A program made the position numbers and the translations under genes. A model generated the notes under the pieces. It was given only the letters and a program-made list of their open reading frames with translations. It searched no databases and had not been told where the DNA came from. 64,000 nt of DNA. Origin: an uncultured Acidobacteriota bacterium (GTDB lineage Bacteria > Acidobacteriota > UBA6911). Position 1 is the stretch's first letter. The number at the start of each line of letters is the position of its first letter. Of this stretch, positions 45,451 to 58,489 are shown one piece after another. The DNA lies in contig CAWEJX010000004.1 in assembly GCA_963809485.1 (NCBI GenBank), positions 224,001 to 288,000 on the forward strand, written 5' to 3'.

Positions 45451-46992
45451 CTATATGGAAGCTTTGGGCTTCGGCCTGGGGCGATCCAGCCTTTTCTTCA
45501 GCAATTGCCTATACATGCCCAGCTTGACCGCAGCTTTTGTCTGATTGTCATCCGTTTGCTTCAGTGCACTCAAGATGACCCATTTTTCGAGATTATAGGC
45601 CGCAGCTTCCAGCCCCATGCCCCCCTGATCCGTATCCACATCATTGAATCGTATTAAAAAATAGCTTTTTTTCGAATCCTCGATCTTTTTGCGAACCAAT
45701 TCTGCCCGGGTTCTCAGATAATCGCTCACAACGCGCGGAAACATGTTCTCCGCATCGTCCAGATGCTGCATGGCGTGGCGCGGCTTGTCCAAGTCTAATA
45801 ATGTGTCTGCCAGGAGCAGATGGGCGTTGATCTTGAGCTTTTGAGACTTGGCCTTTTTCAGCGCGTCCTCGAAATATTGGCAAGCTTCATCCATTTCATT
45901 ATTCCGGGAATGACATTTGCCCAGGCATATTTTTGCCTCGGCTTGAAGCTCCGGGCTGTTGATCTTCTCCGGGGCCGCCAGATCCAGGGCTTCCATGGCA
46001 TGTTTTGAGGCAATTTTGCAGTTTCTCGAAGCGTCCTCCAGATAGAGCCAGCTTAAAGCCACCAAAACCTCAATTTTTTGCCGCTCGTACCGGTGGGTGC
46101 GACAAATTTCCAAAGCCTGATTGAGATGTGCCTCAGCCTCCTGAAAATTTTTGTCACGGAGAAGCGTCCTGCCGATGTTTGTCAGCGTTCGGGCAATATT
46201 CCGCGAATGATGGGCCGCATTATAGAGCCCCAGCGCGGAGGACAGCGTGTGGAACGACTGAGCGGTCTCACCCTGCGAACGGAGGATCGCGCCCAGACTC
46301 TGCAGGACATTTGCCTTGCTGATGTCGTCTCGGATGTCTTCGAGCAGCTGCTGCGCAGCGAGCAATTTATCCCTTCCTCCGAGCGCGTTCCCCTCTCTCC
46401 AGAGAAAAAATCCTTCAAGGAGGTAGCTGATGCCGATGCGCCAGTTGAGAACCGGCAGATCCCGGGACCGGTTTTTCGACGCGGCAAACCAGCGGAAAAA
46501 ACAGGCGCGGGATTCCTCGCAAGATTTGGTGAGCTCATCCTGTTCAAACAGGCGGCTGAAGCACCGCGCGATGAAATGATGCGCTTCCCCTTCACCCGAA
46601 GGGTCGCGCCTTTCCACGCACGTTTTAAGTATCTGCCGCGCCATGGATATCGCTTTATCGAATTTTCTATTTTCGTAATGATACTCGCACAGGACCAGCT
46701 TCTGTCCCGTTCGAAGACTGCCCATGGACAGAAATTCCGACTCCTTTTTTTGATATTTCTTTATGGCGTTGCCGGCGCTGCTGATGTTTCCACGGTAAAA
46801 ATGCAGCCTCGCGGCGATTGCCGATAATTTGGCTTTGAGCGGCTCATGAATCCGTGAGGCACGGGCATCCTGAAAAACCGCATTGTGATAATCAAATTTC
46901 ATCTGGGCCTGGCGGAAATTGCCGCGCGCCAGATCCTCCTCTATGTCCGCGGCAATAGCCTCCGGGCTCTGTTTGTCGGCCTCTGCCTGCAT
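45451..46992 (-). CDS. TPR-repeat protein with C-terminal Fis-type HTH (putative regulator of the Ubl-like operon)
   Basis: GGAGGA RBS; many TPR-like helices (ANVLQSLGAIL, ARTLTNIGRTL); LEKWVILSALKQTDDNQTKAAVKLGMYRQLL HTH; no AAA+ Walker A or GAFTGA. Confidence 0.8.
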   Translation of the reverse strand: MQAEADKQSPEAIAADIEEDLARGNFRQAQMKFDYHNAVFQDARASRIHEPLKAKLSAIAARLHFYRGNISSAGNAIKKYQKKESEFLSMGSLRTGQKLVLCEYHYENRKFDKAISMARQILKTCVERRDPSGEGEAHHFIARCFSRLFEQDELTKSCEESRACFFRWFAASKNRSRDLPVLNWRIGISYLLEGFFLWREGNALGGRDKLLAAQQLLEDIRDDISKANVLQSLGAILRSQGETAQSFHTLSSALGLYNAAHHSRNIARTLTNIGRTLLRDKNFQEAEAHLNQALEICRTHRYERQKIEVLVALSWLYLEDASRNCKIASKHAMEALDLAAPEKINSPELQAEAKICLGKCHSRNNEMDEACQYFEDALKKAKSQKLKINAHLLLADTLLDLDKPRHAMQHLDDAENMFPRVVSDYLRTRAELVRKKIEDSKKSYFLIRFNDVDTDQGGMGLEAAAYNLEKWVILSALKQTDDNQTKAAVKLGMYRQLLKKRLDRPRPKPKASI

Positions 46993-47089
46993 GGTTATAT
47001 CCTCCCTCGATTTCGACCTCGACGGGGAAAGATCCGGTTCCCGCCCCATCCGGGCCGCGCACCCTCCATGGCACCCAGAATCCTATTAC

Positions 47090-47105: not shown

Positions 47106-47220
47106 TGGCAACCCCAATGGCATTTTTATCCGTGCAGCTGCAACCATTCGCATATTGACAGGCATTCGGTGGCACATTAATCATACGTCAGGACATAAAT
47201 AAGCCAGAATAAATGATGCG

Positions 47221-47268: not shown

Positions 47269-48879
47269 ATGGAAAAAACCAGGATATCCGGTCTGAACGC
47301 CGGCGAGCTTCGGAACCCATCCGGGCCTTCCAGCCGGCAGGTCTCCCAAAACTTTTGGATACTGCGGGGACTGTCAATCCTGATATTCCTGCTGATTGTC
47401 GGCGGCACCTCTGTCCTTGCCGATCCTGCGTCTGTTCAGGATCTGAAGACTCCGGAGTTGAGTTCCACCGAAGAACAGTTTCGCCAGGTCTACGCCGAAC
47501 TGGAAAGGCAGCGTCAGCTTTTGCACGATCGGACCCGGCTGCCCATAGATGAACAAAGATCGCTGGAAAATCATCTCTCCGAAGTGCGCAGGAGGTTGAA
47601 GAGAATTTCCAGCCAAATGGATGCGCTGCAGAGGCGCGAAAGCCTGCAGGCCGCAGATATTGCATCCTTGACTGCCAGCTTGCGGGATTTTAAGTCTCAG
47701 ATGAGTCTGCAAAACCAAAACGCGGCGACAGCGCAGGAATCAATTCAGGAAAAGACCTCGCTTGTTCTGTATGCCGTTTGGGCACTCGCTGGCGGAATAG
47801 TAGCTCTGGGAGCTGCCTTTCTAGTTTCCCATCATCGCCAGAAGCGGGTGCTCGGAGAAATTATCGGCCACACGAAGAGGCTGTTGGGCATGGGAAAGTC
47901 GAGGCTGCCTGTTCCGGAGGCTGACACAAGGGCTTCGTGGCAGACTCCGGATCCGCAGATCAATTTCGAAGCCCTTTATCCAAAAGAGATTTCGACATTT
48001 AAGCCGCCCGACGACTGGATTGAGGGATTGCGTATCACTCTTACCAGCGAGACGCTCCAGGGGATGGTGGAGGTGGTTGACCGGGCGGAAAGAGAACGCC
48101 CCGGCCTGGAATCCGGCGGGGCTTTGGTAGGGCGGGTAAGGTGCGACGCCGACGGCAATTGGCAGGATGTCTATGTCGAGGGTCTGTTGAGCGCGGGCAA
48201 TGACGTGAAATATGAATGCGCCTATTATGAGGAAGACCGGGCGGCACAGGGATCAGAACTGGAGCGTTTCCGCGCATTGGACACCCGGGTGTCCTACCTC
48301 GGGGATTTTCACCGGCATCCGGGCCGCATGTACTTCCCCAGTGGAGGGGATCATCAAACCGACGCGCGCAATGTCTGTGAGAGTTTTGCAAAAAACTTCA
48401 AGGGCGGATTTGTATACGTGATATTCACTCGCCACGACGGAAGCCGCAAAGGCGGCCTGGTTCAAGACGGATGGAGAGCCGACTTTTATTTTATGCACCG
48501 CGGGCTGCTGGAGTATGTACCTTTCCAGCCGCGCATCGTGGAAGGCGGGGTTCGCCCCAAAGCATGGCAAATCCCTCACCTTCCCAGGGTACGTTCCGAA
48601 CTTGGCGGACTGAGGGCTTTTGCGCAAACAGTCCGGCTTGATCAATTGGCAAAAGACGGCGATGACTACCTGGTGGTCGACGTTGCCGATCCGCGTTGGG
48701 GCGATAGGAGGGTGCTCTTCTTCCTGGCCGATAACTACCCTTACGTTTCCCCAACTGTTTTCCTCGCAAAACACGAAAAAATGACCGCCCTGAACTCCTG
48801 GATACCAGTCTGGAGTCCAAATAGCGGGCTGGTCAACATCCTATATGGCCTAACAGAAAAAGGTGAACTGCCAAGCTGA
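47269..48879 (+). CDS. Membrane-anchored coiled-coil JAB/MPN peptidase with C-terminal Cys-less E2/UEV-like domain
   Basis: AGGAGG RBS; two hydrophobic segments around a coiled coil; ESGG...GDFHRHP...PSGGD JAMM motif; FLADNYPYVSPTVF...WSPNSGLVNIL. Confidence 0.75.
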   Translation: MEKTRISGLNAGELRNPSGPSSRQVSQNFWILRGLSILIFLLIVGGTSVLADPASVQDLKTPELSSTEEQFRQVYAELERQRQLLHDRTRLPIDEQRSLENHLSEVRRRLKRISSQMDALQRRESLQAADIASLTASLRDFKSQMSLQNQNAATAQESIQEKTSLVLYAVWALAGGIVALGAAFLVSHHRQKRVLGEIIGHTKRLLGMGKSRLPVPEADTRASWQTPDPQINFEALYPKEISTFKPPDDWIEGLRITLTSETLQGMVEVVDRAERERPGLESGGALVGRVRCDADGNWQDVYVEGLLSAGNDVKYECAYYEEDRAAQGSELERFRALDTRVSYLGDFHRHPGRMYFPSGGDHQTDARNVCESFAKNFKGGFVYVIFTRHDGSRKGGLVQDGWRADFYFMHRGLLEYVPFQPRIVEGGVRPKAWQIPHLPRVRSELGGLRAFAQTVRLDQLAKDGDDYLVVDVADPRWGDRRVLFFLADNYPYVSPTVFLAKHEKMTALNSWIPVWSPNSGLVNILYGLTEKGELPS

Positions 48880-48894
48880 ACTAATAAGGAGAGA

Positions 48895-49089
48895 ATGATC
48901 ATGCAAGAAAACAAAAGAGCTTTGACTCCAGAAGAGGTTGAAAAATACCGCCGAAAATTGAGGGAGAGCGACATCCGGTACAACACCGATTGTGAGGTTA
49001 TCGATGGGCCGGTTTATGACGTTACACAGGGGCAGGAAACAATCGTCAAACGCGTTCCTTCCGGCGTGGGGCACTGGCTCAAGCTTTAG
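48895..49089 (+). CDS. Small protein, candidate ubiquitin-like modifier
   Basis: AAGGAG RBS; lies in an E1/E2/JAB operon; ends DVTQGQETIVKRVPSGVG-HWLKL. The Ubl assignment is inferred. Confidence 0.6.
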   Translation: MIMQENKRALTPEEVEKYRRKLRESDIRYNTDCEVIDGPVYDVTQGQETIVKRVPSGVGHWLKL

Positions 49090-49349: not shown

Positions 49350-50603
49350 ATGAGCAGATGGCTGAAGCAATTGTGCAGCGTGTTTTTTGGAGATGAGGTT
49401 TCTGACGAGAAGGCATCCGTGCATTCATTCGCCAGGAGTGCCGAATTGTCTCAAGTGACCGTTCGCCAGGGCGTCATTGATGCGATTTTTGATCAGGTTG
49501 AGAGACATAAGCGAAAACGCAAGGGCTGCGAGACTGGCGGCGGACTCATCGGTAAGCTTTGTCATTCCCAAAGGGGCGGGTGGCTGATGCAGGTCCAGGG
49601 ACTTCTGGCTCCAGGCCCTTGCGCGGAATACCGCCCCACATATTTCGGAGCAGATCGCACATTTCAGCAGCGATGCCTCCGGAAGCATCACGAGAGGGAT
49701 CCTGAGCTTTCGTTTTTGGGAGACTGGCACCGGCATCCAATCGACATGCGATACCCATCCGCGGGAGACCATTTAACCGACCGGGATAACCTGGCAGAGG
49801 CATTCGATGGGGAGAAGCATGGAATATTTCTATTCCCCATTGTGTCCAGGCATTGTTCCGGCTCCATTCACCATCCTGCACCTTCAATCATGAGCCGGGA
49901 TGGAGTATGGAAGATTGATTTTTACTATCTCACACACGCCCGCAGGAGCTCTTACCAGCCCGCTAATCCCCGGATAGAGGCCGGTCCTTCCGTAGAACTG
50001 AGCTGCCTGGACGAAAGGCCGGAGATTTCCGCGCTGCCAGTGTTCTATTCCGACATGAGGATATCCTGTAACCGCCGGCGTGGCTGGGTCGAGCTTGAAA
50101 TCTCGCGGCCGATATGGGGAAGGGATTCCATTTCCTTTCTTCTTCCTCCCAGCTATCCATTCGATCCGCCGCAGGTCTGGATTACGGGCAACGGCAGGAC
50201 ACGGACCTATGAATCCAGGATGCTGGACCTGTGGAGCGACGCCTATAACCTGCTGAATCTCATATACGAAATTGATCACATGGAAGGAGGCATGAGTCAT
50301 GGCTTGGTACAACCGAAACGAGTCCGGGAAAATGCGATTGGTGCTGGAATGCCAGGCGATGAGGGAAACCGGCTCCCGCTTCGTACTGAAGAAACAGGGG
50401 GAGCAGCTCTATTGGATGGGCCGTCTCAGTCCCATATATTCGGCATTCAATCTGGAGATCCGGTATCCGGACAGTTTTCCGGAGAACGGGCCCCTGGTTT
50501 ACGTGACCAGTCCGGCCCTGCCTCAGGGGACGCCCCATCTTCTGTCCGGCCAGCAACTGTGCATCTTCCATCCGGGCTATGCTCGAAAAAAGGGAGTCTA
50601 TGA
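49350..50603 (+). CDS. Soluble JAB/MPN peptidase with E2/UEV-like domain (homologous part ends ~50290)
   Basis: ETGGGLIG...GDWHRHP...PSAGD; FLLPPSYPFDPPQVW...WSDAYNLLNLIY; the last ~100 codons overlap the E2 gene and are doubtful. Confidence 0.75.
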   Translation: MSRWLKQLCSVFFGDEVSDEKASVHSFARSAELSQVTVRQGVIDAIFDQVERHKRKRKGCETGGGLIGKLCHSQRGGWLMQVQGLLAPGPCAEYRPTYFGADRTFQQRCLRKHHERDPELSFLGDWHRHPIDMRYPSAGDHLTDRDNLAEAFDGEKHGIFLFPIVSRHCSGSIHHPAPSIMSRDGVWKIDFYYLTHARRSSYQPANPRIEAGPSVELSCLDERPEISALPVFYSDMRISCNRRRGWVELEISRPIWGRDSISFLLPPSYPFDPPQVWITGNGRTRTYESRMLDLWSDAYNLLNLIYEIDHMEGGMSHGLVQPKRVRENAIGAGMPGDEGNRLPLRTEETGGAALLDGPSQSHIFGIQSGDPVSGQFSGERAPGLRDQSGPASGDAPSSVRPATVHLPSGLCSKKGSL

Positions 50604-50721
50604 CGCGGCAAGAACAACTGCCGCAACAATTCTCGGCCATGCAATTTCGTGGCTGATCTGCTACGAAATCTGGCAAACGACAGGCCGATGGGAAATGGGC
50701 GAAAGCCCCACGGAAGACTGA
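50299..50721 (+). CDS. Prokaryotic E2/UBC-fold conjugating enzyme
   Basis: AGGAGG RBS; RLVLE N-terminal helix; IRYPDSFP..GP.VYV; PH......LC catalytic Cys; C-terminal SWLICYEIWQTTGRW. Confidence 0.78.
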   Translation: MAWYNRNESGKMRLVLECQAMRETGSRFVLKKQGEQLYWMGRLSPIYSAFNLEIRYPDSFPENGPLVYVTSPALPQGTPHLLSGQQLCIFHPGYARKKGVYDAARTTAATILGHAISWLICYEIWQTTGRWEMGESPTED

Positions 50722-50740: not shown

Positions 50741-51613
50741 ATGAACCTCTATGACAGAATCCGGGAAATCGTCAATCCAGATGTCTTTGACAACAAGCAA
50801 GTCGTAGCTTTCGGTTTGGGCTCGGGTGGAAGCACTACGGTGCTGGAGCTGGCTAAATGCGGCGTCAGCAACTTTGAGCTTGTCGATCCCGATCATCTGG
50901 ATCTCAGCAACATTGTCCGCCATGTGTGCGGATTAAGGGATATAGGGCGGAACAAGGCGGATGCCATGCGAGACGAGATTCTCAACAGGAACCGCAACGC
51001 ATGCGTCGGCGCCCACGCATTTGACATCATGGAGGACTATCAACGCACGTCCGATTTGATACGCGACGCCGACCTCGTGCTTGCCGGGACAGACAATGAG
51101 CCTTCCAAGCACCGTATCAACCTGATCAGCCTGGAAGCCGGCATACCGGTCGTTTACGCCGCCGCCTATCATCGCGCTTTTTGCGGCGAGGTATTCCGGG
51201 TAATTCCGGGGCAAACGCCCTGCTATGCATGCTTTGCTCATGCGCTGGGCCGAACGGAAACAGTCGAGCAAACCGATAGGAGCAAGCTTCGTTACGACGA
51301 TCCGGAAATGGAGCATGCTCTTTCAACCTCCCCGGGACTGGGTATGGATATCGCAGCAATCGCCCTGATTGCCTCAAAGCTGGCGTTAATGACTCTCCTT
51401 GAAGGGACCCAATGGGCGATGCCGCCATTCTCAGGCAACTATATATTCTGGGGCAATCGGCCTCTGAATAACGGCCTGGTGACTCAGTACTGGGAAAGAA
51501 AATTCTGGCAGATCCGCTGCGATCCCCAATGCCTGATTTGTGGCGTGACAGGAAGCAACAGGAATGAGGGTTTGTATGAGGAAATCATGAACGGCCTAGG
51601 TGGAGCAGCATGA
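50741..51613 (+). CDS. ThiF/MoeB-family E1-like adenylyltransferase
   Basis: GLGSGGS, VDPD, SNIVRH, GRNKA, GTDN, Zn ligands CYAC and CLIC. Confidence 0.9.
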   Translation: MNLYDRIREIVNPDVFDNKQVVAFGLGSGGSTTVLELAKCGVSNFELVDPDHLDLSNIVRHVCGLRDIGRNKADAMRDEILNRNRNACVGAHAFDIMEDYQRTSDLIRDADLVLAGTDNEPSKHRINLISLEAGIPVVYAAAYHRAFCGEVFRVIPGQTPCYACFAHALGRTETVEQTDRSKLRYDDPEMEHALSTSPGLGMDIAAIALIASKLALMTLLEGTQWAMPPFSGNYIFWGNRPLNNGLVTQYWERKFWQIRCDPQCLICGVTGSNRNEGLYEEIMNGLGGAA

Positions 51614-52383
51614 TGACAATCCTGCTCGAGGTGAAGCCTTGGGTTTACGCGGCAACGCTGATAGCCGCGATTGTGTCGCTATTCATGTGGTGTCGCCGGC
51701 GCAAGAAGAAGGCACGAAGCGTTTCCCGGCAGGCATCCAACCATGGAAAATGGAAACAGTCAGCTACTGCCACCGAGACCGTTGCGGACAGCATTTCCAG
51801 ACTGCAGACAGCTTTCGGCTTCCGGATCGACGATGATTTCGGAGTTCGGCTAGGTTCCCTGCTAAGCACGGCAAAATATTACAGGCGACTGGGTTTTGTC
51901 GAATTGGCGCATACCCTGGACGATGTGGCGGAAAAAGCGGTTGAGAGCCTCAGAAGCCGCTGTGAGAAAACACTGAAAGAGGTGAAGATCGAATGCGTAG
52001 CATTCCAGCACAATGAGCGGGGCATCGCGGCCGGATTTGTCCTGAATCCGGCTGCGATGTCGGAGCCTTCTCCCGGTACATTTCTGCTTGAAATTGCCGT
52101 CGGCCCCGCAGGCAACAGGGCGGGGGGCCGAACTTCGCGGTATTTTGCAATACGGCTTGAAAAAGGCCGAATCGTGAAATTAAGCGCCGCGGAAACACTT
52201 ATTACCCTACCCGACAGGCCGAATTCCGTCACGGATGAGGTGGGCAATCTGATTGTGACCGCCGTCGATCCATGGGTCTGTGCCATCATTCTAGGCAATC
52301 GGCAACTTGCCCAGGACAACTGCCCGTGTCCGCCTTTTATGGAGGAATACGAGAAAATATTGAGATCCCTATTACGGCCCTAA
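51610..52383 (+). CDS. Hypothetical protein with N-terminal membrane anchor
   Basis: ATGA overlap with the E1 stop; WVYAATLIAAIVSLFMWC followed by RRRKKK. Confidence 0.7.
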   Translation: MMTILLEVKPWVYAATLIAAIVSLFMWCRRRKKKARSVSRQASNHGKWKQSATATETVADSISRLQTAFGFRIDDDFGVRLGSLLSTAKYYRRLGFVELAHTLDDVAEKAVESLRSRCEKTLKEVKIECVAFQHNERGIAAGFVLNPAAMSEPSPGTFLLEIAVGPAGNRAGGRTSRYFAIRLEKGRIVKLSAAETLITLPDRPNSVTDEVGNLIVTAVDPWVCAIILGNRQLAQDNCPCPPFMEEYEKILRSLLRP

Positions 52384-55684: not shown

Positions 55685-55810
55685 AATAGGCATTATTGCC
55701 AAGCCATTCGATACTATTCAATCGCATCCAACTTCGTTACAATAACTCCATCTTCTTATACCGATTCTCAGTGCATCGAACCGGCTGTCGGCGTGGCGGA
55801 GATCTTCCTC

Positions 55811-58489
55811 ATGATCGGCAAAACGCTCGGCCATTATCAAATCACGAATCCCCTCGGCAAGGGCGGCATGGGGGAGGTGTATCAGGCGCGCGACGATCGG
55901 ATCGGGCGGGATGTCGCTGTAAAAGTGCTACCGATGGAGTATGCGGCCGATAAGGACCGTCTCCGCCGCTTCGAGCAGGAAGCCCGGGCGGCCGGCCAGC
56001 TCAACCATCCCAACATCCTGACCGTCTACGACGTGGGTACGCAGGAGGGAGCTCCCTACATCGTCACGGAGTTGCTGCACGGGGAGAGTCTGCAGGAGAT
56101 TGTGCACCCGGGCGGCCTGGGCGTTCGCAAGTCTGTGGATATCGCGGTCCAGATCGCGAATGGCCTGGCTGCGGCCCACGAGAAGGGGATCATTCACCGC
56201 GATCTCAAGCCTGCCAACGTGTTCGTTACGAGGGACGGCTATGTCAAAATCCTGGACTTCGGAATCGCGAAACTGGCATCGCCGAGAAGCGTCCATGGAT
56301 CGGAAGAAACCACCCTGATGAACGCAACAACTGAGGCCGGCAAGCTGCTCGGCACCGTAGGATATGTCTCCCCGGAGCAGCTGCGCGGCCAGCCTGTGGA
56401 CCACCGGACAGACATTTTCTCCTTGGGGTGCGTGCTGTACGAAATGCTGGCAGGACAACGGGCATTCCAGGGACCGACGGCGGCAGACACCGTGACGGCG
56501 ATCCTCTCGAAAGACCCGGCGCCGCTTTCGGCTCCGGGATTGGAAATTCCGCCGGCGCTGCAGGCCATAGTGAGCCAGTGCCTGGAGAAATCCCCGGAAG
56601 ACCGCTTTTCCAGCGCCCACGACGTGGCGCTGGCGCTGCGGCTTTTCCCGGGGCAGACGGAAATGATCGGGCCGCAGCCGGGAGCGGGGAGGCCTCCGAT
56701 GAGCCTGCGGAGGCGGCTGGCTGTGGCGGGTTTGGCAGTGCTGCTCCTCGTCGCCGCCATTATCGCCGTTTGGAAGCTGCTCTCACGGCCTCCCACACAG
56801 CGTCAGGAAGCGGTACAGGGGCAATCGGTCAGGGTCGTCGTTCTTCCATTTGAAAACCTCGGTGCCGCCGAAGATGCATACTTTGCCGCAGGCATGACTG
56901 AGGAGATCACCAGCCGGCTCGCCAATGTACAGGGATTGGGTGTGATCTCGCGGACCTCTGCCATCGGATACGACGGGAGGGGGAAAACCGTTAAGCAGAT
57001 CGGCCGCGACCTCGGTGTCGATTTTGTGCTTGAGGGCAGCGTGCGTTGGGAGCGCGCTCCCGGCCGGGAAAGCCGCGTGCGCATCACCCCGCAGCTCATC
57101 CGAGCCGCCGACGACACCCACATCTGGTCCGATCGATACGAAAGGGTGCTCGCAGACGTGTTCGCCATCCAGTCTGAGGTGGCGGAAAACGCCGTCAAGG
57201 CGATGGGCGTCGCGCTCCTGCCCAATGAGCGGGCTGCACTGAAAGAGGTCTCAACGCAGGACCTGGAGGCCTACCAGCTCTACCTTCGCGGCCGCGAACT
57301 GGAAAGCCGCGGTGTGGTCAGAAAAGATATCGATGGTGCACTTCAGATGTACCAGGATGCGGTCCATCGCGATCCACAATTTGCGCAGGCCCTTGCGGGA
57401 ATGGCCAGGACCAACCTGGCGATGTACTGGGAGTACTTCGACCGGAGCCGGGAGCGGCTTGTCAAGGCCAGGGAAGCAGCGGAACTGGCCGTCCAACTCC
57501 GCCCGGACCTCGCGGAGGCCCAAACCGCTCTGGGGCTCTATTACTACTGGGGAAAATTGAACTATCCGAAGGCCCTGGATTCGTTCGCGGCGGCTTTGCG
57601 GTCTCAGCCCAACAACTCCGATGCACTTGCCGGAATCGGCTTTGTCCTGCGCCGCCAGGGACGATGGGTAGAAGCGATGGAGAAGTTCAGCACTGTGGCG
57701 GACCTGGATCCCAAAAACGCAGCCCGGATCTTTGACGTCGGTCTCACCAATGAACTCGCCGGCCGCTACGACGACGCGGATCGTGCCTTTATCCGGACGC
57801 TTTCCTTGAATCCGCTCTACGCTGGAGCGTATGCAGAACGAGCATGGCAACAGCTCGTGTGGCGTGGCGACACGGACAAGGCTCAGGCTGTTCTGGACGA
57901 GGCTGCCCGTGTTGCCGGCCTTACGGACGATGTTGGCTATATTGCGGAGATACAACTGCGGGTTTCATTGTGCCGCCGGGACTATTCCGGTGCGCTGCGT
58001 CGGCTTGAGGCTGAAACACGGCCCGCAATCGACAACCAGGACGGATTCTGGCCCATCCCCTTGCTCCGCGGAAATGTATATCGGTTGGCCGGTCAGCCCA
58101 GTCTCGCGCAAGACTCGTACGAGGCTGCGCGCCTGGAACTCGAGAAAAAAGTCCGGCAGACTCCTGACGATGACCGGTTCCGCAGCTCGCTCGGCATAGC
58201 CTGCGCAGGCCTCGGCCGGCGCGAAGAAGCCGTGCGCGAGGCGCGCCTTGCCTGCGACCTCATGCCGGCCTCGAAGGACGCCTTGCGGGCCATCTTTCGC
58301 CTTTGGGAACTGGCCGTCGTCTTGGCAATAGCGGACCGGCCGGCCGAAGCGATCGTCACATTGGACGAATTGCTTGCGCGAAGCGGTTGGTGGACGCCTC
58401 AGGTGCTCCGGCTGGATCCTACATGGGACCCGCTGCGGCCGGATCCGCGATTCCAGGCATTGCTCGTCAAGTACGAGGTTAAACAATAA
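55811..58489 (+). CDS. Hanks-type Ser/Thr protein kinase with TM, TolB-N-like domain and TPRs
   Basis: LGKGGMGEVY, VAVK, HRDLKPAN, DFG, YVSPEQ; TM helix; VLPFENL...GMTEEI; TPRs; DPLRPDPRFQALL. Confidence 0.92.
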   Translation: MIGKTLGHYQITNPLGKGGMGEVYQARDDRIGRDVAVKVLPMEYAADKDRLRRFEQEARAAGQLNHPNILTVYDVGTQEGAPYIVTELLHGESLQEIVHPGGLGVRKSVDIAVQIANGLAAAHEKGIIHRDLKPANVFVTRDGYVKILDFGIAKLASPRSVHGSEETTLMNATTEAGKLLGTVGYVSPEQLRGQPVDHRTDIFSLGCVLYEMLAGQRAFQGPTAADTVTAILSKDPAPLSAPGLEIPPALQAIVSQCLEKSPEDRFSSAHDVALALRLFPGQTEMIGPQPGAGRPPMSLRRRLAVAGLAVLLLVAAIIAVWKLLSRPPTQRQEAVQGQSVRVVVLPFENLGAAEDAYFAAGMTEEITSRLANVQGLGVISRTSAIGYDGRGKTVKQIGRDLGVDFVLEGSVRWERAPGRESRVRITPQLIRAADDTHIWSDRYERVLADVFAIQSEVAENAVKAMGVALLPNERAALKEVSTQDLEAYQLYLRGRELESRGVVRKDIDGALQMYQDAVHRDPQFAQALAGMARTNLAMYWEYFDRSRERLVKAREAAELAVQLRPDLAEAQTALGLYYYWGKLNYPKALDSFAAALRSQPNNSDALAGIGFVLRRQGRWVEAMEKFSTVADLDPKNAARIFDVGLTNELAGRYDDADRAFIRTLSLNPLYAGAYAERAWQQLVWRGDTDKAQAVLDEAARVAGLTDDVGYIAEIQLRVSLCRRDYSGALRRLEAETRPAIDNQDGFWPIPLLRGNVYRLAGQPSLAQDSYEAARLELEKKVRQTPDDDRFRSSLGIACAGLGRREEAVREARLACDLMPASKDALRAIFRLWELAVVLAIADRPAEAIVTLDELLARSGWWTPQVLRLDPTWDPLRPDPRFQALLVKYEVKQ

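Follow-up and report, generated by a model that had tools for sequence, protein, structure and literature searches.

The window analysed in this study is a stretch of 64,000 nucleotides from an uncultured Acidobacteriota bacterium (UBA6911), assembly GCA_963809485.1, contig CAWEJX010000004.1, positions 224,001-288,000. We describe a gene in this window whose product, P0001, carries a JAB peptidase domain and a pseudo-E2 domain behind predicted membrane segments. The preliminary description treated this gene alone. It heads a same-strand operon of ubiquitin-like tagging enzymes, and the sequence evidence suggests that P0001 is probably the membrane-anchored peptidase subunit of this small E1-E2 protein-tagging operon. 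The gene and its parts were assigned as follows.

47269..48879, + strand: P0001, JAB-pseudo-E2 gene, 536 aa (open reading frame (ORF) call, profile search, Kyte-Doolittle (KD) scan, AlphaFold2 (AF2) model and fold search)
47353..47421, + strand: P0001 aa 29-51, first hydrophobic segment, a cleavable signal peptide or first transmembrane (TM) helix, TM1 (KD peak 2.12)
47422..47757, + strand: P0001 aa 52-163, predicted extracytoplasmic helical/coiled-coil segment (heptad test and AF2 helices)
47758..47826, + strand: P0001 aa 164-186, predicted TM helix, followed by SHHRQKR (KD peak 2.09)
48016..48558, + strand: P0001 aa 250-430, JAMM/MPN+ peptidase domain (Pfam Prok-JAB, Foldseek, VIA-align and catalytic residues)
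48559..48876, + strand: P0001 aa 431-536, Cys-less UBC-fold (UEV/RWD-like) pseudo-E2 domain (VIA-align, hhalign and the Cys column)
47155..47184, + strand: promoter-like site TTGACA-18-AATCAT upstream of P0001 (motif scan; a lead only)

Gene and membrane topology of P0001

The reading frame of P0001 was without a break over its 536 codons, and a strong ribosome-binding site (AAAGGAGGG) was located 9 nt upstream of the ATG. The scan for promoters and terminators stayed at the level of chance, with 4 promoter-like sites found and 3.6 expected. Hydrophobic segments were defined on the KD scale using a 19-residue window and a score >1.6. Two were found in P0001, at approximately aa 25-56 (core 31-49) and at aa 162-188 (core 165-183). 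The last residues of the first were VLA, DP came next, and the residues at -3 and -1 were small, as at the cleavage sites of signal peptidase. This was consistent with the preliminary description, which had reported a first hydrophobic segment that ended like a signal peptide. In the case of P0002, a relative with 77% identity, the first segment was under the TM threshold, as expected of a signal peptide. In addition, short signal-peptide-like segments opened many P0001 homologues. Based on these two observations, cleavage of a signal peptide, with a type I protein as the result, appeared at least as likely as a two-helix hairpin. Under both topologies, the JAB domain would very probably be located inside the cell.

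The segment between the two hydrophobic stretches showed a heptad pattern. Windows starting at aa 93-99 had L/I/V/M at seven of eight heptad a/d positions, and the heptad maximum of aa 52-163 was matched by 8 of 1000 shuffles and the mean score by none of 1000. The second helix carried three K/R in the 15 residues after it and one K/R with two acidic residues in the 15 before it. An AF2 model of the full-length protein was built from a 45-sequence family alignment, with a mean predicted local distance difference test (pLDDT) score of 78. It was confident at aa 250-430 and 438-530 and poor at aa 1-26, 46-64 and 209-230. The N-terminal part was modelled as helices at 28-47 and 65-88 and as one long helix at 93-208, which ran through the second hydrophobic segment. 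The structure prediction that had been proposed as a check gave helices together with confident JAB and UBC-like domains. The coiled coil of about 100 aa that had been described earlier was supported by the shuffle test and the AF2 helices, and the TM helix followed by the basic HHRQKR was also present.

JAMM peptidase domain

The JAMM motif of P0001 was complete, as had been noted from the letters alone. E281, H348-R-H350, S358 and D361 formed the pattern E...HxHx7SxxD, and E281, H348, H350, S358 and D361 were invariant or at least 90% conserved across the 45-sequence family alignment. Pfam Prok-JAB (PF14464) matched aa 273-388 with 34 bits against a cut-off of 25. For the central domain, all Foldseek matches in the PDB were JAMM/MPN proteins, the best being a Caldiarchaeum Rpn11 homologue (6fnn_B, E 2e-7); BRCC36, CSN5/6, AMSH/Sst2 and Cap3 were further matches. 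VIA-align, a fold search of 48,161 chains that is independent of Foldseek, gave as its top match Cap3 of the anti-phage signalling system based on cyclic oligonucleotides (CBASS; 9ild_A, Z 16.6, root-mean-square deviation (rmsd) 2.4, 143 residues). This was followed by Rpn11 and its archaeal homologue (Z 15.3), a deubiquitinase of a bacterial ubiquitin-like protein (Ubl) (8tyy_B, Z 13.9), which we take to be BilC, and BubCD (Z 10.5). When the MPN fold was tested by VIA-align, Z values of 14-16.6 were obtained to Cap3, Rpn11, BRCC36 and CSN5. Three more Prok-JAB matches were seen in the same genome (C1:472311-472670, C20:374420-374674 and C6:288075-288218).

C-terminal pseudo-E2 domain

The last 106 residues of P0001 (aa 431-536) did not contain any Cys. 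The domain was modelled at pLDDT ~85-96 as a helix, four to five strands and a helix, with helices (H) and strands (E) at H438-451, E454-462, E465-473, E480-486, E496-501 and H521-530. The best VIA-align match of aa 432-536 was the UEV domain of human Tsg101 (Z 9.1, rmsd 3.1, 103 residues). Z 8.2 was obtained for Ube2W, a Plasmodium E2 and the Knl1 RWD domain, and Z 8.1 for the Vps23 UEV domain, Ubc9 and VPS37A. UEV domains, which bind ubiquitin or an E2, have an E2 fold that lacks the Cys. The Pfam UEV model gave E 0.16 and 12.3 bits on P0001, where its cut-off is 27. On the basis of the model, the domain belongs to the UEV/RWD-type pseudo-E2s by fold, not by sequence family.

The UBC-fold assignment was independently supported by three observations. 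The profile of the C-terminal domain aligned by hhalign to the profile of the E2s encoded at loci of this type (probability 48%, E 1.9e-4, 73 columns), over a region that spans the N-terminal helix and the YPxxxP flap. The flap Pro was invariant in 32 of 32 family C-terminal domains. Moreover, in the family member P0059 (375 aa) the JAB domain is followed by an entire E2 that appears to be active and shows the H...LCW and W-x-P...DTAA motifs known from the locus E2s. P0059 may be an evolutionary intermediate, having a JAB domain and an active E2 where P0001 has the Cys-less domain. T506 of P0001 aligned to Cys88 of the operon E2, and this column varied (L/V/M/R/T and other residues; one Cys among 32). 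Because this column is not conserved, the domain would not be a serine-type E2 like that of Bub. "Pseudo-E2" is a fair name for it, and the Cys-less, E2-like tail of the preliminary description held at the level of the predicted fold, with a weak hhalign link to the locus E2s in addition.

A different Cys was present in 20 of the 32 family UBC-like domains. It is followed by His four residues on (PC-x-E-x-x-H) and falls in the column of P0001 V469, which we read as lying in the first UBC-like strands, not at the catalytic position of E2s; P0001 does not have this Cys. Since the PC-x-E-x-x-H motif is conserved, the UBC-like domain of the main family may not be catalytically dead.

Conservation of membrane anchoring in the P0001 family

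A word-indexed search of 5.8 billion proteins returned one near-full-length relative, P0002 (536 aa, 100% coverage). A phmmer search with aa 225-536 of P0001 against 1.84 billion representatives gave 74 proteins at E <=1e-3, 36 of which were at <=1e-10. The family is rare. Between P0001 and P0002, the ectodomains were 72% identical, the JAB domains 87% and the UEV-like domains 83%. For the family analysis, 70 of 75 sequences with a strict HxH...SxxD and a length of <=1000 aa were used, leaving out P0016, P0050, P0055, P0057 and P0068.

Hydrophobic segments N-terminal of the JAB domain were found in 42 of these 70 members, two or more in 19 and one in 23. The other 28 were without an N-terminal hydrophobic segment; several of them were fragments, and four had a C-terminal hydrophobic segment instead. 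The last helix and HxH were mostly 124-178 residues apart across the family. K and R summed over the 42 members, 15 residues on each side of the last helix, were 123 after and 55 before, and the anchor helix aligned across the family. The share of anchored members, the near-constant spacing, the charge bias and the aligned helix together indicate, as far as sequences can, that membrane anchoring with a cytoplasmic JAB domain is a conserved family trait, not an accident of P0001. Two doubts had been raised in the preliminary description, that homologues might lack the TM part, making P0001 a chimera, and that the JAB domain might lie outside the cytoplasm. The 42 anchored homologues and the charge bias, which places the JAB domain in the cytoplasm, spoke against both.

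These data also bear on the idea that the N-terminal 230 residues of P0001 are an annotation artefact, caused by a wrong start or a gene fusion, and that the real product is a soluble JAB-UEV protein. A soluble paralogue does exist in the operon (JAB2, below), and the 28 members without an N-terminal hydrophobic segment agree with such a product. However, the frame is unbroken, and its first ATG has the strong ribosome-binding site. P0002 shares the 536-aa architecture, with 77% identity over its full length, and in dozens of homologues the TM helix aligns and keeps a constant distance to the active site. We regard an artefact as hardly credible.

The ectodomain was not conserved in the family. 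It ranged from 3 to ~230 residues and was mostly of low complexity, rich in Pro, Ala, Ser and Thr. About a dozen members had an N-terminal anchor only, with a stub of 3-7 residues before the helix, and a coiled-coil-like ectodomain was seen only in P0001, P0002, P0003 and P0010. This is relevant to a second alternative, in which P0001 would be an anti-phage receptor: events at the envelope, for example the adsorption of a phage or the injection of its DNA, would be sensed by the coiled-coil ectodomain and would switch the JAB domain via the TM helix. The receptor-like topology of P0001 fits such a role, and the 72% identity of the P0001 and P0002 ectodomains points to some constraint. However, variation in length, sequence and composition, down to stubs of a few residues, weighs against a sensor. 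The ectodomain also showed no recognisable ligand-binding fold; its matches were to generic long helices (spectrin, Snf7; Z ~8, a value that is unreliable for helices).

The JAB-UEV gene was present in 2 of 401 sampled genomes of the phylum, this one included, and it was not found in 40 relatives, 24 of which belong to the same genus. This sporadic occurrence indicates that the locus is accessory. A look-up of sequencing runs listed none of RNA as a source, and the DNA runs listed contributed small shares only. A distribution of this kind (1 of 41 relatives and 2 of 401 phylum genomes) would also suit an anti-phage receptor, to which we return with the genomic context.

Operon in the window

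The genes around P0001 were as follows.

48901..49089, + strand: small ORF, 62 aa, with ribosome-binding site AAGGAGAG; candidate modifier or regulator (position and conservation)
49350..50603, + strand: JAB2, soluble JAB + UEV-like paralogue (Pfam Prok-JAB 25.3 bits, identity to P0001)
50299..50721, + strand: true E2, 140 aa, with His80 and Cys88 (PADLOC E2 model)
50741..51613, + strand: E1-like adenylating enzyme, 290 aa, single ThiF domain (Pfam ThiF, PADLOC)
51610..52383, + strand: ORF257, predicted N-terminal TM anchor, then RRRKKKAR and a globular part (KD segment aa 4-28)
45451..47049, - strand: TPR + Fis-type helix-turn-helix (HTH) protein, 532 aa, divergent; candidate operon regulator (Pfam)

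The E1 matched Pfam ThiF at 5.9e-33 and the PADLOC E1-E2 model at 4.7e-32. Its nearest solved sequences were MoeB (1.3e-12), SUMO E1, PaaA, MccB and UBA5, and Cap2 was matched at 3.5e-5. The E2 matched PADLOC PDLC00876 at 2.3e-20, its best solved relative was 8hsb_B "E2" (5.3e-5), and a Pfam search gave no match for it. H80 and C88 were invariant in the E2s of 12 of 12 loci. JAB2 showed 32% identity to P0001 aa 255-528 (E 2.7e-36), with an intact HxHx7SxxD motif and no hydrophobic segment. E1, E2 and JAB2 were all without a signal or TM segment; the sole KD peak of E1 (aa 199-222) lies inside its ThiF match.

The E2 gene overlaps the final ~105 codons of the JAB2 ORF by 305 nt, in another frame. 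The JAB2 orthologue P0004 has an equivalent start Met and the same read-through tail. The JAB2 tail over the E2 gene may be translated or may be merely an open alternative frame of a conserved gene. E1 ends in GLGGAA (51590-51613), a ubiquitin-like diglycine plus two residues. This end was considered as an activated tail and was rejected, as it is not conserved in the E1s of the four related loci found in genomes (L008-L011).

The start of ORF257 overlaps the stop of E1 (ATGA). ORF257 had no Pfam, PADLOC or NCBIfam match and two homologues only, with 77% and 71% identity. The small ORF of the window had a sole homologue, P0079, with 94% identity and a C-terminal tail eight residues longer. It starts with LTPEE...R..L.ES and has a G-V-G-H-W motif ahead of its variable end. 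The divergent regulator candidate matched Pfam TPR_12 at 1.5e-19 and HTH_8 with 20.7 bits, under the cut-off of 22. It was found in 1 of 25 relatives (G015, 41% identity) and had no counterpart in the related loci; a fragment resembling its C-terminal part was seen elsewhere in the same genome (C20:457530-457985). About 3.4 kb downstream of the operon, a gene (55793-58489, + strand) encodes a large Ser/Thr kinase that has a TM segment and, in its C-terminal part, a TPR region.

Related loci

Related loci were collected by pattern scans confirmed by tblastn; the other loci returned were weak JAB-only matches. Four family loci were found in genomes (L008-L011, of 10 returned), three labelled Planctomycetota, Planctomycetia or Planctomycetaceae and one Hydrogenedentes; metagenomes contributed 11 (L018-L028, of 23 returned). 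Thirteen of these 15 loci showed the order JAB-UEV, small ORF, E2, E1, and L022 and L028 were too short for it to be seen. In L026, ~3 kb separates JAB from E2. Upstream, seven loci carry the genes of two proteins, of 292 and ~200 aa, in which a long coiled coil is combined with an N-terminal helix. In 11 loci, the product of a gene downstream of E1 combines a signal-like segment and a TPR segment with a helix that carries a basic cluster and with a beta-rich stretch of ~300-400 residues. In L008, this TPR-TM-beta-rich gene (L008:10845-12534) shifts frame after ~12145, probably an assembly frameshift. The P0001 ectodomain was compared with the separate coiled-coil proteins as a possible relative, and no similarity was found. 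The C-terminus of the beta-rich membrane protein was also tried as an activated tail; Gly was within the last four residues in only four of seven, with no consistent motif.

Further genes were seen near the related clusters. An M50B-like membrane peptidase lies 0.5-1.8 kb downstream of the cluster in three loci (L019:12460-13194, L020:13667-14401, L021:11820-12530). AAA ATPases, IetA/TRIP13-like by PADLOC, lie near two loci (L019:13160-14275, L010:404-1624), and a second ThiF-domain gene follows the cluster in L010 (L010:9546-10928).

The genomic context gave mixed results for the anti-phage receptor introduced above. In its favour, the operons of the main family also encode the two membrane-anchored proteins, whose coiled coils are predicted to be periplasmic, and a protein with a TPR segment predicted to lie there too, so that a large part of the system would be turned towards the envelope. 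In addition, E1, E2 and JAB resemble components of the anti-phage systems CBASS and 6A-MBL (MBL, metallo-beta-lactamase), at scores under the family cut-offs. However, the surroundings did not look like those of defence genes. PADLOC at 1e-5 matched none of six flanking ORFs in the window and three of 30 flanking ORFs of five related loci, and these three were generic (one methyltransferase and two AAA ATPases). By Pfam, the flanking genes were mostly housekeeping genes. Viral contigs were without a family member and gave five weak JAB-only matches at E 1e-5 or worse. We consider a phage-sensing receptor unlikely. The preliminary description had proposed a membrane-tethered deconjugase or processing protease that could respond to envelope events such as phage DNA injection. 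Its first part is likely, since P0001 is predicted to be anchored, with an intact JAMM motif on the cytoplasmic side. The response to envelope events was not supported, as the ectodomain is unconserved and there is no defence-island context.

The small ORF as a candidate tag

In 14 of the 15 loci, an ORF of 63-87 codons lies in the interval of 200-360 nt between JAB-UEV and E2 (for example, L019:8313-8504 and L010:6068-6265). Thirteen were found by pattern; that of L008 starts with GTG, and L028 ends before this point. GGAG was present <=15 nt upstream of the ATG in all 13 pattern-found ORFs. The copies differed mainly at the third position of codons. Between those of L021 and L022, for example, differences by codon position were 11/5/31, and the codon changes were 26 synonymous and 10 non-synonymous. 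The GGAG sites, the third-position bias and the 94% identity of the window ORF to P0079, compared with 77% between P0001 and P0002, indicate at the sequence level that these small ORFs are real genes. The family shares an N-terminal motif, (L/I)S-x-ERAEEIR, and a C-terminal motif, N-(V/M)-(I/V)-(G/A)-(K/R)-(F/Y)-D-(T/R)-H-(Y/F), followed by 0-4 variable residues. The small ORFs had no Pfam or PDB relative and no Ubl family match. The 62-aa ORF of the window was treated as the positional equivalent of this family by position, size and short motifs, with homology unproven.

These small proteins end in a way that recalls the tails handled by Cap2. Close to a variable C-terminus, G/A-(K/R)-(F/Y)-D... 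is found in the small ORFs and G-H-W-L in the window ORF. Cap2 is reported to adenylate the disordered C-terminal tail of CdnD, and CdnD of E. cloacae ends in ...TGRFA (10.1101/2022.03.31.486616, available part). The G/A-basic-aromatic tail and the presence of MccB and PaaA among the closest solved relatives of E1 led us to propose the small ORF (48901-49089 in the window) as the tag of the E1-E2 system, an assignment by analogy that is possible but doubtful.

A third alternative was considered for the same genes, namely maturation of a peptide like the ribosomally synthesised and post-translationally modified peptides (RiPPs), or membrane-protein quality control. Here, E1 would activate the C-terminus of the small peptide so that it can be chemically modified, the JAB protein would be a leader or tail peptidase, and the membrane proteins would export or receive the product. 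MccB and PaaA adenylate ribosomal peptides, and they matched E1 (~1e-11) as well as MoeB and UBA5 did. The small ORF lacks a Ubl fold signature or Pfam family, and the M50B-like peptidase in three related loci and the AAA ATPases near two are in its favour. However, E2s are not known from RiPP pathways, and the E2 here has its His and Cys invariant in 12 of 12 loci and is grouped by PADLOC with CBASS-type E2s. The three M50B loci are closely related, so their synteny may be inherited. This alternative is improbable.

Comparison with known systems

By sequence and fold, E1, E2 and JAB were nearest to the CBASS lineage. Cap3 was the top fold match of the P0001 JAB domain, E1 and E2 of the window scored best on the CBASS-derived E1-E2 and E2 models of PADLOC, and, as in type II CBASS, no beta-grasp Ubl was found in the operon. 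According to the available part of the report, CBASS has no Ubl, and the disordered tail of a partner enzyme is activated (10.1101/2022.03.31.486616). However, the window operon has no CD-NTase or effector of a known kind, its E1 and E2 are separate genes whereas Cap2 is an E2-E1 fusion, and its JAB is fused to a pseudo-E2 and membrane-anchored. The NCBIfam Cap3 model gave 23.4 bits for JAB2 against a cut-off of 200 and no match for P0001. The best reading is a system related to, yet distinct from, CBASS Cap2/Cap3.

Other systems shared fewer features. In the case of 6A-MBL, which combines an E2-E1-JAB triple-module protein with a metallo-beta-lactamase (Iyer 2006, row 6a), JAB and E1 of the window weakly matched NF058523. 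Its cut-off is 320 bits, and the scores reached were 20.1, 29.2 and 58.5; neither an MBL gene nor a triple-module fusion was present. Bil (BilABCD) likewise has E1, a Cys-bearing E2 and a JAB peptidase in one operon, and the JAB fold resembles 8tyy_B. However, Bil is described as having a beta-grasp Ubl, BilA, and a multidomain E1 (IAD-AAD-CYS), whereas the E1 of the window has 290 aa and one ThiF domain, and no Ubl was found. Bub/6E resembles P0001 in the reported combination of a Cys-less E2-fold domain with a JAB domain. The Cys-less E2-fold domains were taken as inactive, RWD-like ubiquitin binders in the available part of Iyer 2006. In Bub, the Cys-less E2 is reported to be a working E2 via a conserved Ser, with the JAB fused to E1 and a DUF6527 protease (BubE) present. 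The window differs from Bub/6E in its separate E2 with the invariant Cys88, the variable aligned column, the unfused genes and no DUF6527 match.

The best fold matches of the two cytoplasmic domains of P0001 included eukaryotic UEV proteins (Tsg101/Vps23, Mms2) and JAMM deubiquitinases (AMSH, Rpn11, BRCC36), at sequence identities of 9-21%. In the literature on Cap3, BilC and BubCD, which was sampled and not covered exhaustively, the characterised bacterial JAB proteins were soluble, in agreement with the preliminary description. Precursor maturation or deconjugation is the reported role of Cap3, BilC and the BubCD JAB domain. In the available part of Iyer et al. 2006, a membrane-anchored JAB with a fused E2-fold domain is not among the five operon types (rows 6a-6e). 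Within the full-text literature searched, to which subscription journals and supplementary tables did not belong, no paper on a membrane-anchored JAB-UEV protein or operon was found.

Proposed mechanism and significance

Following sequence rules, the first hydrophobic segment of P0001 would insert into the membrane or be cleaved as a signal peptide. The heptad-repeat helical stalk of ~110 residues would then stand outside the cytoplasmic membrane, and the single TM helix would bring the chain back to the cytoplasm, where a linker of ~60 residues would hold the predicted-active JAMM zinc peptidase and the dead UEV-like domain near the inner membrane face. By analogy with their families, the soluble E1 (50741-51613) would adenylate the C-terminus of a partner protein and hand it over to Cys88 of E2 (50299-50721), which would conjugate it to targets. 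The candidate tag is the small downstream protein, which would not be a classical beta-grasp Ubl. The P0001 JAB domain would cut C-terminal peptide or isopeptide bonds of the partner, either in precursor trimming or in deconjugation. The pseudo-E2 probably arose from an E2 fused to JAB and might serve as a docking module for the modifier, E1 or E2. Through the tether, processing or deconjugation would take place only at the membrane surface, which is also the predicted place of the operon's other non-enzymatic products, and soluble JAB2 may do the same job in the bulk cytoplasm. The variable ectodomain would more likely be a spacer, an oligomerisation element or a contact to a periplasmic partner than a specific ligand sensor.

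Several observations weigh against the assignment of P0001 to such a tagging operon. Unlike the main family, the window operon has no separate coiled-coil membrane proteins. It has an extra soluble JAB-UEV protein, and ORF257 stands where the main family has the TPR-TM-beta-rich protein. ORF257 was tried as a short homologue of that protein and was rejected, with hhalign probabilities of 0.3% and 0.2% and no hmmsearch match. No beta-grasp Ubl was found among the operon ORFs by Pfam family searches of the small ORFs. When searched with the small-ORF family, the 62-aa ORF ranked top of the 1255 ORFs in the window, but at E 0.31, and BLASTP gave no alignment. The small ORFs have a conserved H-(Y/F) beyond the G-(K/R)-(F/Y) motif, so a cleavage or activation site is not readable from their sequence. 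The fold of the P0001 C-terminal domain comes from one AF2 model, and the Z values of 8-9 are rated middling by the search tool.

A more specific version was also considered, in which a free-standing, non-beta-grasp peptide tag of ~60-65 residues with a Cap2-like tail passes through its whole cycle on a trans-envelope complex, and tagging is coupled to the envelope state. This complex would consist of the JAB ectodomain or the separate periplasmic coiled-coil proteins, together with the TPR-TM protein. The operon family would then represent a form of bacterial protein tagging that had gone unrecognised. We hold this version to be rather unlikely.

Bacterial E1-E2-JAB systems (CBASS Cap2/Cap3, Bil and Bub) were recently reported to be true ubiquitination-like pathways, and their enzymes are described as soluble in the sources consulted in part. 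The operon headed by P0001 represents a rare yet conserved type, and it would add the membrane tether, the JAB-pseudo-E2 fusion and a possible non-beta-grasp mini-tag to these systems. If the small ORF is indeed the tag, E1/E2 conjugation would extend past beta-grasp proteins and enzyme tails to a dedicated mini-modifier. The P0001 family would be a natural example of a bacterial E2 turning into a UEV-like adaptor. A membrane-fixed deconjugating peptidase with a dead E2, conserved in a family, would add spatial control to the bacterial tagging repertoire.

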